This document shows positions 18,203-22,962 of a DNA stretch of 64,000 nucleotides, one piece after another (the first letter of the stretch is position 1; every line of letters starts with the position of its first letter). The notes beneath the pieces were generated by a model. That model was not told the DNA's origin, did not search any database, and saw nothing but the letters and a program-made list of their open reading frames with translations. The DNA comes from Candidatus Latescibacterota bacterium (lineage in GTDB: Bacteria; Latescibacterota; UBA2968): contig OZ244960.1 of NCBI GenBank assembly GCA_965222605.1, positions 3,328,001 to 3,392,000 of the forward strand, in the 5' to 3' direction. Both the position numbers and the translations under genes were made by a program.

Positions 18203-18478
18203 TCATTTAGAATGCGACTTGTCCCAGATGGGTTTTACTTTTTCGATGACTTCGGCATCGGTCGGGCTGGACGCGATGATGTTCGTAAATTCTTCGGCTT
18301 CAACGCCAAGTTCCTCCAGGAACTTTCTGTCAGCTGGTCACGGATAGACGTAGTCACCAATACAGCCTCGCAATTTGGCGCGGGCTTTATCTGTAATGCG
18401 CGGGAGCCAGGGCATGTCGCCCATGTAAAGCTGGCGGCTGCGCGGTCTAAAATCAACAGCGGAACTGAGTTTGTCCAT
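18203..18478 (-). CDS. DUF5069-like small protein with in-frame TGA (candidate selenocysteine at codon 47)
   Basis: RBS GGAGGA; MDKLSSAVDFRPRSRQLYMGDMPWLPRITDKARAKLRGCIGDYVYP-U-PADRKFLEELGVEAEEFTNIIASSPTDAEVIEKVKPIWDKSHSK; TGA at 18340-18338; promoter TTGCTA-N17-TATGTT (18550-18522). Confidence 0.75.
18308..18325 (-). promoter_or_regulatory. candidate bacterial SECIS hairpin
   Basis: AAGTTCC-TGGA-GGAACTT starting 12 nt after the in-frame TGA; G in the apical loop. Confidence 0.6.
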
Positions 18479-18558
18479 TGTAGATTCCTCCTTCAGGTAT
18501 AATGGCTTTTACAATTGTCATAACATAGTGATTTTGCCAGTGAATAGCAAGTTAGAAA

Positions 18559-18720
18559 CTGATGTTACGCATGTCTCGCGTTTCTGTCATGCTGAGGAAG
18601 CCGATAGGCTGACGAAGCATCTTTTACCTATGCATATCGTTCAGGCAGCAGATTCTTCGACTCCGCTGCGCTCCGCTCAGAATGACAGGCGCATTATATT
18701 GTGCCTATGCGTAACGTCAG
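18559..18720. mobile_element. 162-bp MITE with internal palindromic repeat
   Basis: TIRs CTGATGTTACGCA / TGCGTAACGTCAG; 7-bp TSD TTAGAAA (18552-18558, 18721-18727); internal GTCATGCTGAG...CTCAGAATGAC. Confidence 0.88.
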
Positions 18721-19109
18721 TTAGAAAGTGAACCCGCCAGTTGAATAAGGTCATATAAATTCTCGCAGATTGATTTGTTTCATACCTTCTTTAATGTATT
18801 CTAAACTCTTGCGATTTGATAAATCCAGTATGGGATGCTCAAAATCAATTTTCTCCGCCAATATACTTGCTACTTCTTTAGTCCAGTGGGACATACTCAT
18901 TTGAACAATATTGCCATTTATGGCTTCAGCCATTTGGACAATACGACTGCGTTCACCAATTCTATCCACTAAAATAATTGTCGACATGTAATGTGTCTGT
19001 CTGCCCAATTCTATCTCTCTTTCAAACCTCGATACTTTATCCAAAGATATCTCTGTATTCCCCGGCCCAATAAAACCAATGTCGAATCTTACACCAACAC
19101 CTGGTTCAT

Positions 19110-20157
19110 ACGCGATGTGTGACTTCAAAATTTTACGAGACCGTCAAAATCCAGCGGGTCTCTGTAATTGATAATATTGAGAAAGACACACATGGTATGG
19201 GTTAAGATTTTGGTATGCCACAGGTTCAATAAGTGCCATGCATCTCGCACTTTCATGCGGGCAATATGTAAACGTTCTGTCAATTGTGCATAAACGGTTT
19301 CGACTAATCGCCTTGTGGCTTTCTTCGCTTTGGGCAAAATGAAAGGGGTGCGTTCAGGATTTTCTTTCATATTGGACTTTAAGGGTGTCTTTATGCGTAT
19401 GCGGTAGGTATCAAAACACCTTTTTTGCCAGTCCAAGTCCATAAATGCCGCATCTGCCAAGACGGTTGTCTCTCCCATCGTACCATTCAGGAGTGCGTCT
19501 CGGCAGTTCTTGTCGTGTCCATACGCTTGCAGGATCGGCGCGTGGACAATAAGACCATAATCCGTGATCCTAAGGCCACCCTTAAAGCCAAAATATGCTT
19601 CACTTTTGGCGGCACAAAAGCCTTTTGAGGGGGGAGGGAACTCAAAGACTGGCTCTCTTGTAAATATCTTGCGATAATGTCGCCTTGCCAGTTTACAGAT
19701 CGGTAAGGGTAGCGTATCTATGATCTGGCAGGATGCCTGATGCCCTTCCAAGCTGGCAACAATCCGCTGTTGCATCCACATCTTGACAACCCACAAATTG
19801 GCACATTGACGCACAAAGGCAGGACGGTCTTTCAAAGTGGGAAACCAATCTATGAAGTGTTCTTTCATCTGCTCATAAAGTTTTTTCTGGCTTGAATATC
19901 CCAAAAAGTGACCCACGATTTCTATGGTGAGGCATTCGGCATCACTTAAACCGGGGTCAAAGCCTGCCCGACGGGGCTTGCCATGCACCTTACAGAAAGC
20001 CGGATAGAGTTCGTCTTCAATAAAACAGTAGATTGCAATGACAAAAAGGTCTAAATTATACATCGGAGGTTCCTTTCGTTGAATGGCTTCTTGTTTAGTG
20101 AACAATTCAAGATAGCCGAGGAACCTCTTTTTCGCTATTTAAAGTCACACATCACGT
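19110..20157 (-). mobile_element. IS982-like insertion sequence (1048 bp)
   Basis: 16-bp TIRs ACGCGATGTGTGACTT / AAGTCACACATCACGT; 9-bp TSD CTGGTTCAT (19101-19109, 20158-20166). Confidence 0.9.
19125..20063 (-). CDS. IS982-family DDE transposase
   Basis: LSDAECLTI, IIDTLPLPIC, YFGFK, LADAAF, RRLVETVYAQL. Confidence 0.88.
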   Translation of the reverse strand: MYNLDLFVIAIYCFIEDELYPAFCKVHGKPRRAGFDPGLSDAECLTIEIVGHFLGYSSQKKLYEQMKEHFIDWFPTLKDRPAFVRQCANLWVVKMWMQQRIVASLEGHQASCQIIDTLPLPICKLARRHYRKIFTREPVFEFPPPSKGFCAAKSEAYFGFKGGLRITDYGLIVHAPILQAYGHDKNCRDALLNGTMGETTVLADAAFMDLDWQKRCFDTYRIRIKTPLKSNMKENPERTPFILPKAKKATRRLVETVYAQLTERLHIARMKVRDAWHLLNLWHTKILTHTMCVFLNIINYRDPLDFDGLVKF

Positions 20158-20901
20158 CTGGTTCATATAAAAGGGTGGCATCACTCTCTCGTTTTTTCCC
20201 TCGGTCGGATAACCAGTAAACTTTGTTGGTCTCATCAGTATTTTGGGGATCAATTTTCCGAAAGCCCAATAATGAGAGGAGGGAACCCAATATAAGCTTT
20301 TCAAACAACTTACCATACATTGATTTTTCGGAACCTCTAATCGCTAATGTTTGAGTGCCAATGGCAGCAAAAAGATAGAGAATGAATGGCCAATCCACCT
20401 TGCATTCCACGCCCTGGATTTTCAAAATACCTTCGAGTTCCCCATAGTCAATTTTACATTTATCCGTAGATTGTTTAAGTGATTCCTCAAGCGCATTGAG
20501 GTAATTATCAAATTCATTATCCCTACTTCTCAATACATTCTGGATACTTTTTCCTGTTAGACCGATACACCATTGCAAAAAAAGTTTTCTCTCATTCGGT
20601 ATTCTTGATCTTAGTTCGGTTTTTACAATCTCCGGGATCTTATCGACAAAATTCTCAATATCCTGACCAGACCTGAGAAAAGTCACAAATAGTGCTGCAT
20701 TTGAAAGCGTCAATCTTCTCCGGGTCAACCCTTCGGTTAAAGAACGGATATTCCCACCGCACAGGACAGAGGTCACAACTTCCTTAACGATATCCTCACC
20801 AATCCTGTCAATTACTTCAACACCTCGATACCTTGCCAGAGATTCACCAATACGGGGGATATTTTGCGATATTGTCTCATAAAACATTGGTTTCTCCGGT
20901 T

Positions 20902-22092
20902 CTAAAATTCAATATAGTGCTTGATAGGTGCAACTGGCTCACAGTTTATCCAATTCACTTCTTCGACTTCCTGCTGCAACCAGTTCTCAATATTCTTCTT
21001 AATTTCATTAACATATTCTTCATTGATTTCAAATAGTACAAATCTCCTATTGAGTTTGGAGGCAGCTTTTCCAACTGTGCCAATGCCCGCAAAGGGATCG
21101 AGAATGACGTCATTCTTAAACGAATAGTATCGAATCACTTTCTCTGCAAGTTCTAATGGGAATATTGCTGGATGCTTTTTGCTGTGAGCAGGATGAATCT
21201 TCCAGATATTCGTTACCTCATACCCATCCTCAATTCGAGACGCTTTAACTCGTTTTTGATCTGGATGTTTTCTGATATGCCAATCAATCAATTTATCCGT
21301 GTTCTTTCGATAGACCAAAATATATTCTGTTATGGGGACAGATTTGTATTGCAACGGATTTCTATCAGCCGCAAATCTTCTACCTCGTCCAGTTGCCCAA
21401 CCAGCACCTTCCGGTTTTACCCATATTATATCATCAATAAACTCAAATCCTTCTTCGATAAAAATTCTGTGAATATCAAAAGGCACTGCTATTCTCTTAG
21501 AAGATTCATTTCGACTTGCTCTACGAATCAACACAGGCGATATGTTTATGACAAAAAACCGTCCTTCATTTAGAACTCTATGACACTGATGTATAATTTT
21601 TCTCATTTTGAGTAAGTATTCATCGTATTGAATGTAATCAGAATATTCAGGCCGAGCATTATAGTAAGGAGGAGACGTGAATACGAGATCAACCGATTCA
21701 GATGGTGTCTGCAAAAGCAGTTCTTCACTGTCTCCCAAACCAACTGAGTTTCTCAAATTTGAAATTTTAGGCACACCAGCTTTTTTTCGTTTTTTAGTTC
21801 TACCGTTTGTACGCCCGAGCAACCTTGCTTCTAAGATCTCCTTTTGAGTTGTCTTTGGTTCTTGTATCAAACTCGTATATGCATCAATTACTATCTCACC
21901 TATCTTATTGTTATCCTTACCCTTTAAGGGTACTCGCCAAAGATGGTATCGGTCATCTACTTCTGGCAGTCCAAACTCAATTGCCTTGTTAAGATCGATA
22001 TCTTTGAGATAATTAGTGGAAATCTGTTTTGCATCCTCAACATTTTTCACGCGATATTTTCGCTGATCATAAACTGTTATTTTTTTTGACAT
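20902..22092 (-). CDS. N4-cytosine/N6-adenine DNA methyltransferase (beta class), cognate of the CfrBI-like nuclease
   Basis: TSPPY before HPAIFP and DPFAGIGT; low GC; adjacent to the nuclease gene. Confidence 0.92.
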
Positions 22093-22129
22093 AATATCTC
22101 CAAGCACTCTACGAACACGAATTAAGTGG

Positions 22130-22197
22130 GCGGCTTAAACCATGTTGCAATGATAACCAAACCACTGGATTGCGGCTTAAACCATGCCGCAATGACA
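22130..22197. repeat. two copies of a short palindromic repeat (GCGGCTTAAACCATGCCGCAATGAC family)
   Basis: 22130-22153 and 22167-22197; reverse-complement relatives at 33115, 33219 and 34281. Confidence 0.75.
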
Positions 22198-22392
22198 GCT
22201 AAAACCTTCTGGTTTGAGTTAATAACAAACTTTTTTTACTGACCATTAAGGAATGTTTTTTAGATATAGTCAATTTATCGAGGAAAACAAGGATTTTTTG
22301 CAGTTTGCTATACTTTGAACAAGCGGCATACAACTTCCCAAGAAGCTCATTTGAAGGTTTTAATGGATCGTATTATTCAACTTTATGACAAT

Positions 22393-22962
22393 CTATTTTA
22401 CGGCGTATGTGCTCAGCGTTGTGTCGCCGTATTTTTTTTCTCGAGAGAGGATGAGGTTGGGAAAGGATTTGGGTAGCGTTGTTTGGGAGGCGTGTTGGAC
22501 GAGAACGCGGGCGTTGGGTGCGAGGATGGGGGTTGTTGCGAGGCGGGTGAGCAGGGCGCAGGACATGGGTTGCCCGTCTAATTGTTGGTGGTAGGGGGGG
22601 TCGAGGTATAGGATGTCAAATAGGGCATTCGAATGCGCGAGTTGGGGCAAGAGTTTCTGCGCGGGACGCGCGTAAAGCTGGATGCGGTCGTTGAGGTGCC
22701 AATTTTCTATAAGCTGTGCGATGAAGTGGTTGCAGCGGCGGTCGGGTTCATTGATGACCACCTGTGCGCCGCGGCTACAGGCTTCAAGGCCGATTTGACC
22801 AGAGCAGGAGAAGAGGTCGAGGAAATAACTGCCGTAGAGGATCTCGCCAAGGGAAGAGAATACGGCTTTTTTTACAAAGTCGGATGTGACGCGGGCATTG
22901 CCGTACTTTTTGTTGTTAAAGGGAATGCGGCGGCCCTTAAATTCGCCAGCGATGATGCGCAT
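22393..22962 (-). CDS. rsmD: RsmD-family (16S rRNA m2G966-type) methyltransferase
   Basis: MRIIAGEFKGRRI, LDLFSCSG, DPPY, KKYGDT. Confidence 0.8.
   Translation of the reverse strand: MRIIAGEFKGRRIPFNNKKYGNARVTSDFVKKAVFSSLGEILYGSYFLDLFSCSGQIGLEACSRGAQVVINEPDRRCNHFIAQLIENWHLNDRIQLYARPAQKLLPQLAHSNALFDILYLDPPYHQQLDGQPMSCALLTRLATTPILAPNARVLVQHASQTTLPKSFPNLILSREKKYGDTTLSTYAVK

Follow-up and report, generated by a model that had tools for sequence, protein, structure and literature searches.

Does the in-frame TGA codon in a short gene of a sponge-associated Candidatus Latescibacterota bacterium encode selenocysteine (Sec), or does it end the protein? The gene lies in a window of 64,000 nucleotides, the whole stretch of DNA analysed, within a genome that consists of one contig of 6.34 Mb. 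The initial annotation, made from the letters of the window, had described a frame of 91 codons with a single TGA at codon 47 in GDYVYP-*-PAD, and had proposed a Sec-containing member of a protein family of unknown function. The frame is present in the sequence as described, with the TGA in the context GDYVYP-U-PADRKFLEEL, and the proposal is supported by the homologues, by the selenocysteine machinery and by the recurrence of the TGA. We put the probability that this is a genuine selenoprotein gene at about 0.9. The features of the locus are as follows.

18203..18478, minus strand: probable coding sequence of a DUF5069 short-form selenoprotein of 91 residues, from the translation with TGA read as U and the PF16798 match; the TGA stop is included
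18478-18476, minus strand: start codon ATG, read from the sequence
18340-18338, minus strand: in-frame TGA, codon 47, taken as selenocysteine; across 84 distinct orthologous genes, the codon is TGC/TGT (Cys) in 17 and TGA in 67
18205-18203, minus strand: final stop, also TGA (codon 92), read from the sequence
18325-18308, minus strand: putative bacterial SECIS (bSECIS) hairpin, stem AAGUUCC/GGAACUU (7 bp) and loop UGGA, over codons 52-57 (KFLEEL), from the minimum free energy (MFE) fold
18493-18487, minus strand: ribosome-binding site AAGGAGG, 8 nt 5' of the ATG, read from the sequence
18550-18522, minus strand: promoter-like element TTGCTA (18550-18545), N17, TATGTT (18527-18522), read from the sequence
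18180-18148, minus strand, also called on the plus strand: intrinsic terminator common to this gene and the convergent polysaccharide lyase family 8 (PL8) gene, found by a scan as 15 pairs followed by a T run

The gene appears to form its own transcription unit. The ribosome-binding site, earlier called strong, is there, and its GGAGG core is retained in seven of ten aligned genus relatives, the other three differing at this place. The proposed promoter stands as a sequence, with the -35 hexamer (except one base) and most of the -10 hexamer conserved across ten genus relatives, but not as a scan call: it matches 8 of 12 consensus positions, which is below the scan threshold, and was hence uncalled. 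The terminator predicted after the true stop was recovered by the scan. The convergent gene on the other side of this terminator (14810-18115, plus strand) encodes a PL8 lyase of 1101 residues (Lyase_N, Lyase_catalyt and Lyase_8), whose C-terminal end carries repeated D-x-D-G-x-G stretches that look dockerin-like by eye.

Upstream of the gene, 36 of 80 loci have rsmD (PF03602) in the same orientation, mostly at a distance of 60-180 bp (range 32-2560), a neighbourhood that tells nothing about function. Within the genus the distance is 32-78 bp (2560 bp in L088). In the window, rsmD is found at 22393-22962, and an inserted block of about 3.8 kb (18556-22300) separates it from the selenoprotein gene. 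Minus-strand genes at 18751-19128, 19125-20105, 20135-20887 and 20902-22107 make up this block, which contains a 125-residue open reading frame (no Pfam match), a DDE transposase, a CfrBI-like restriction endonuclease and an N4/N6 DNA methylase. Similarity to the relatives breaks just upstream of the conserved TTTCTAACTTGC, and the promoter was thus spared by the block.

Parts of the stretch were found in 22 public sequencing runs, 6 of which are RNA libraries. Contigs from four of these RNA libraries, belonging to four studies and 95-99% alike, cover the gene, for example 18214-18494 in X17 and 18214-18492 in X21. Neither the TGA nor the hairpin is altered in them, and their differences include third-codon positions such as 18305 and 18302. 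These contigs, which may derive from DNA, give a hint that the gene is expressed.

The initial annotation had named DUF5069 as the family to which the protein belongs, and this assignment is real. With U read as C, residues 12-83 match PF16798 (E = 3.4e-16; 60 bits against a cut-off of 27) in an alignment that spans the TGA. The match covers only profile positions 4-75 of 133, and the protein stops at residue 91, so it falls short of a full-length domain; the orthologues of about 90 residues constitute a short-form subgroup of DUF5069 that lacks the C-terminal third. None of the NCBIfam models matched the window's protein at E up to 1. The sole relative with a solved structure is an uncharacterised protein of Leptospirillum rubarum (PDB: 3OMD; E = 1.7e-11), which carries Cys, in the motif YNCPLD, at the position aligned to Sec47. 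A search of a protein atlas with P0002, a natural Cys homologue, gave no usable match.

A cysteine had been expected at the position of the TGA, and this expectation was borne out: of the 32 homologues from the protein database, Cys occupies the position in 23 and W in 5, 3 stop short at codon 46 and the last one is frameshifted, a pattern in which the residue is neither Trp nor variable. A whole-genome search found a DUF5069 match in 60 of 61 related genomes, and codon 47 is TGA in 50 of the 53 orthologues extracted from these relatives, TGC in 2 (both from the window's genus) and TGT in 1. Named metagenome-assembled genome (MAG) records contributed 80 loci (63 TGA, 11 TGC and 6 TGT), most of them titled Candidatus Latescibacterota and the remainder Candidatus Poribacteria, MAGs labelled Gemmatimonadota and one Opitutales. 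The concern that the TGA might be unique to this assembly is dispelled by these counts. Pooled and made non-redundant, the orthologues amount to 84 distinct genes, 67 with Sec (TGA) and 17 with Cys (TGC/TGT), which is the Cys/TGA pairing that an alignment of homologues had been proposed to reveal. No orthologue has TGG at codon 47, every form other than TGA being TGC or TGT. The reading frame and the residues on both sides of the TGA are conserved down to 48% amino-acid identity, and neither of the two Cys forms within the genus is truncated. In the wider family, which comprises 415 cluster representatives at E up to 0.001, the column of Sec47 over 164 domain hits contains Cys in 119 (with the query's C-for-U counted), Ser in 20, a gap in 9 and other residues in 16.

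Public protein sets hold three wrong forms of this protein: W at the TGA, a cut at codon 46, and a frameshift. The entries concerned are P0003-P0006, P0012, P0022, P0030, P0032 and P0033, and the cluster representatives P0038, P0043, P0044, P0052, P0085, P0094, P0119, P0136 and P0173. P0022, P0030 and P0032 end at codon 46, and several representatives of clusters at 50% identity have their own last residue where residue 46 of the query aligns. P0033 comes from a close relative on a 367-kb contig and has its frameshift after residue 29. The W entries are most likely TGA codons translated under another table, a reading based on two comparisons: P0005 is identical throughout to the translated locus L049, except for W in place of TGA, and the WG context is that of orthologues with TGA-GGN.

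Two further loci with in-frame stops came up in these searches. In a genome of the same class, a tandem-DUF5069 frame of 433 residues (G060:C1:2155822-2156043, minus strand) contains one in-frame TGA, possibly another Sec site within the family. A paralogue in the window's genome (G000:C1:5573015-5573323, '1 TGA, 1 TAA') was considered as a Sec gene and rejected, as it looks frameshifted near the C-terminus. In the longer extract of this paralogue (L024 1300-2100; G000:C1:5573015-5573404, minus strand), the C-terminus resumes in another frame past an A run, which looks like a frameshift or homopolymer error and not like a Sec codon. The surroundings of the DUF5069 paralogues in the window's genome gave no lead.

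We then consider the RNA that follows the TGA. The hairpin AAGTTCC-TGGA-GGAACTT had been reported to start 12 nt past the TGA, with the loop at 19 nt and a G at loop position 2; all of these details were confirmed, and a further G follows the one at position 2. Its core UUCCUGGAGGAA, which overlaps the conserved peptide FLEE and could owe part of its conservation to the protein, is invariant in 67 of 67 TGA forms, and the core GTTCCTGGAGGAAC occurs a single time in the genome. Codons 53-56 read TTC CTG GAG GAA without a single nucleotide difference among the 67 TGA forms, whereas 3, 5, 7 and 8 codon types are found at these four positions in the 17 Cys forms. Other conserved residues of the TGA forms do vary synonymously: P46 is encoded by 3 codons, D50 by 2, and F64 by TTC in 37 and TTT in 30. 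Each of the Cys forms within the genus has lost one stem pair (AAG to AAA in one, GAG to GAA in the other), and the more distant Cys forms have no hairpin at that place.

The stem itself shows the marks of a structural constraint. Over all cells of the 7-pair stem, 91.5% are paired in 57 of the 58 distinct TGA-form segments, the count omitting L160, which has a one-codon insertion yet forms GUGUUCC/GGAAUAC. Among the 57 segments, pair 18-31 is seen as G-C 49 times and as C-G 8 times, pair 17-32 as A-U 43 times and as G-U 11 times, and pair 16-33 as A-U 19 times and as C-G 7 times, with 31 segments unpaired there; compensatory changes thus occur at two outer pairs, and CUUCC/GGAAG is one naturally occurring variant of the stem. 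The covariation score of 0.136 compares with 0.054 in shuffles and exceeds every slid control, and none of 500 shuffles scored as high, a count that is no probability because the sequences are related. This comparison of sequences indicates that the RNA structure is selected in its own right, and solely where a UGA is present.

The weight of the hairpin evidence is in the comparison across genomes and not in thermodynamics. The 18-nt hairpin alone folds at -6.7 kcal/mol (z = -2.72), whereas the folding energies of longer stretches are near those of shuffled sequences (z = -0.91 over 66 nt and -0.60 over the 41 nt from the UGA onward). As these stretches do no better than shuffled ones, we did not use folding energy as a test. 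The published bSECIS limits (PMC13188914, section 5) are a loop of 3-9 nt, an upper stem of 4-16 bp, a G in the first two loop positions, a distance of 16-37 nt between UGA and loop, and an MFE of -7.5 kcal/mol or lower. The loop (4 nt), the stem (7 bp), the position of the G and the spacing (19 nt) all lie within these limits. With regard to energy, the 41 nt from the UGA reach -9.7 kcal/mol with a lower stem that is not conserved, while the conserved hairpin alone is weaker than the limit.

The genome also contains the machinery for selenocysteine, as the initial annotation had proposed to verify through the sel genes. We found selA (576 bits), selB (388 bits, adjoining selA), selD (365 bits, with one in-frame TGA of its own) and, just after selD, tRNA-Sec (73 bits), all above their curated cut-offs. 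The selD gene (G000:C1:3613020-3614142) is itself a selenoprotein gene, with its TGA in SCGG-U-ASK, and the tRNA-Sec gene lies about 100 bp downstream of it. Across the relatives, selA is present in 57 of 61 genomes, and in 49 of the 50 with the TGA form, the exception (G050) being an 80% complete genome. Both genomes of genus g14 gave no selA match; one of them carries TGT at codon 47, and the other lacks an orthologue. In the window's genus, selA is retained in both Cys-form genomes.

These findings bear on two other ways of reading codon 47. The TGA could be an ordinary stop that arose by a nonsense mutation, in a pseudogene or through an assembly error, such that the locus yields a 46-residue peptide or nothing. 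Gene callers do treat it as a stop, as the database entries and cluster representatives cut at codon 46 attest, and the frameshifted copy of one close relative, P0033, also counts for this reading. A TGA shared at this codon by 67 distinct genes, from MAGs titled Latescibacterota and Poribacteria among others, is hard to reconcile with such an accident, as are the 44 codons downstream that stay conserved and in frame, the Pfam match that runs across the TGA, the full-length Cys forms within the genus, and the same TGA in RNA-library contigs of four studies; we regard this reading as almost certainly wrong. Alternatively, the UGA might be read as Trp or another standard residue, through a reassigned code or near-cognate suppression and without selenium. 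The W at codon 47 in five database homologues favours it on its face, but these entries most likely reflect the choice of translation table, and not one orthologue has TGG. Furthermore, of 2015 open frames at least 400 codons long, 824 end in TGA, prfB is present (517 bits), and the gene's own stop is TGA; taken together, these observations mean that TGA is a normal stop in this genome and is not reassigned. Decoding without selenium would also leave unexplained the complete Sec machinery and a structure-constrained hairpin that follows the TGA in TGA forms only, and we consider it very improbable.

Decoding of the UGA at codon 47 as selenocysteine is therefore the reading we retain, and on comparative grounds we hold it to be very probable; we infer from this that Sec is actually inserted. 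The intragenic hairpin would act as a bacterial SECIS element, recruiting SelB with its Sec-tRNA(Sec) to a ribosome paused at the UGA of codon 47. At codon 92, a UGA that has no such hairpin, translation would terminate, and the intrinsic terminator then follows.

We also asked how Sec and Cys are distributed over the subgroup. In a quick tree of 74 rows (58 Sec and 16 Cys), built on 88 columns with Sec entered as X and the Cys column kept, and with many forks unresolved, the Sec/Cys label changes at least 5 times, 2 of these changes being forced by well-supported branches. Since three separate Sec clades carry the same hairpin core, Sec would be old in the subgroup and its replacement by Cys would have happened several times. 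Sec thus looks ancestral in the clade studied and repeatedly replaced by Cys, a direction that we infer.

To place Sec47 in a structural context, we used an AF2 model built on 111 aligned sequences (mean pLDDT 87.9). The model comprises a beta-hairpin (residues 18-23) and four helices (25-37, 48-57, 61-70 and 74-90), and in it Sec47 is the residue directly before helix 2 (48-57), at the N-cap position. The model matches 3OMD with a Foldseek E of 1.8e-4 (TM 0.78) and a VIA-align Z of 12.5 (rmsd 2.3 over 85 residues). There was no other informative fold match, the remaining Foldseek hits having E above 2 and the next best VIA-align hit a Z of 4.0, and no thioredoxin-fold chain was among the matches listed in either search. 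The Sec motif reads G-D-Y-[VI]-[YF]-P-U-[PGAS]-[AVM]-D, and the near-invariant residues are P12, R13, L25, R27, D30, K31, R33, A34, C/U47, D50 and D74. A UxxC or CxxU motif is absent and there is no second conserved Cys, the nearest one, Cys39, being confined to the genus.

Sec/Cys pairs and thiolates at helix N-caps provide a general basis for a redox reading of such a site, and we tentatively propose, from the model, that Sec47 is a redox-active nucleophile that needs an outside reductant. The dipole of helix 2 would stabilise a selenolate at residue 47. A selenenyl intermediate would need an outside thiol or reductase for its resolution, given that the protein has no second conserved Cys. 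Two arrangements in other lineages suggest what such a partner could be. In a second clade, represented by 14 of 80 loci with both Sec and Cys forms, an FNR-like NAD_binding_1 protein is encoded directly downstream, its start overlapping the DUF5069 stop (ATTGA, in L145) or lying at most a few bases away (L149). In one relative, a NuoF-like FMN/4Fe-4S module is fused to the protein. A single protein query did not find the FNR-like protein in the window's own genome. In the same second Latescibacterota clade, L149 1581-5105 and L145 1561-4139 form a tight same-strand row that encodes proteins of 125-134 and 345 residues (no Pfam match), DUF5069, the FNR-like protein, a family 2 glycosyltransferase and argC.

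The main rival to this proposal contests function only and assigns Sec47 to the binding or handing over of a metal, a metalloid or a chalcogen without redox cycling, for example Cu, Hg or As, or S/Se as a persulfide or selenide carrier. A single conserved Cys/Sec without a resolving partner would fit such a role; an anion could be bound by R13, R27, K31 and R33, which are basic and conserved; and fusions occur to cupin domains in three relatives and to an AI-2E family transporter in one. The catalogue of selenoproteins includes several that bind metals (PMC13188914, Table 1), which we also count for this reading. Set against it, the family lacks a conserved His/Cys cluster of the kind typical of metal sites, no metal-resistance or transport gene is a regular neighbour, and the FNR-like and NuoF-like links point to electron transfer. 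We consider metal or chalcogen binding somewhat unlikely. Returning to the redox reading in its most complete form, the DUF5069 short form would be a new helical, non-thioredoxin, single-selenol redox protein, ancestrally Sec-containing and from an uncatalogued family, that is recycled by NAD(P)H-dependent flavoproteins. The recyclers would be the adjoining FNR-like protein in some clades and the fused NuoF-like module in another lineage, both suggested only in lineages other than that of the window. All elements taken jointly, this picture is speculative and probably wrong in at least some part; if true, it would be the first clue to what DUF5069 proteins as a whole do.

As far as checked, the DUF5069 family is uncatalogued as a selenoprotein family. 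Table 1 of a review of May 2026 (PMC13188914) gives domain accessions for 119 prokaryotic selenoprotein families and subfamilies; PF16798 is not one of them. BSepDB is described as holding 111 families (PMC13326102), and neither DUF5069 nor PF16798 appears in the portion of this source that was covered. Nor is DUF5069 among the nine new families of deep-Sep (PMC12013277), going by the part of that source available to us. Hypothetical protein GOS_A of the GOS study (PMC2398784) was considered as the same family and rejected: within the material covered, its sequences are unrelated, and the motifs DKARA and FLEEL occur 0 times in two supplementary files. The name 'DUF5069' was met nowhere in the literature searched. 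An earlier mention is possible in the full BSepDB list or in the Peng 2016/Haft supplements.

Few signs obtained by computation alone point to a residue that does chemistry, and a Sec/Cys pair is among them. The pair described here marks position 47 as the working residue of the DUF5069 family, for which a solved structure (3OMD) exists. It also adds a family to the current lists of prokaryotic selenoproteins (119 in the 2026 review and 111 in BSepDB), and it exposes how databases mishandle such genes, with some entries cut at codon 46 and others given W at the TGA. Moreover, the 67 natural SECIS variants, along with Cys forms whose hairpin is broken or absent, offer a comparative set for the modelling of SelB recognition in Latescibacterota and Poribacteria.

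Comparison with known systems places the protein as follows. Relative to 3OMD, it has the same fold and carries Sec where 3OMD has Cys. It differs from thioredoxin-fold redox selenoproteins in having neither UxxC nor CxxU and probably also in its fold, which is modelled as helical. MsrA, GST-like and SelO-like selenoproteins, for which Table 1 of PMC13188914 gives '-' as the Sec motif, likewise have a single Sec that replaces a conserved Cys with no nearby redox partner; they have no sequence or fold relation to DUF5069, and the likeness is one of logic only. A further correspondence is with known bSECIS genes (the model of Zhang and Gladyshev, as given in PMC13188914, and selD in this genome), which have the same combination of a Cys-aligned UGA, a downstream hairpin and the decoding machinery. 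The DUF5069 hairpin conforms to that model in having a G in the first two loop positions, at a distance of 19 nt from UGA to loop. The SECIS element of selD in the same genome, which begins 13 nt after its UGA and consists of a 7-bp stem with a GGU loop, has nearly the same layout.
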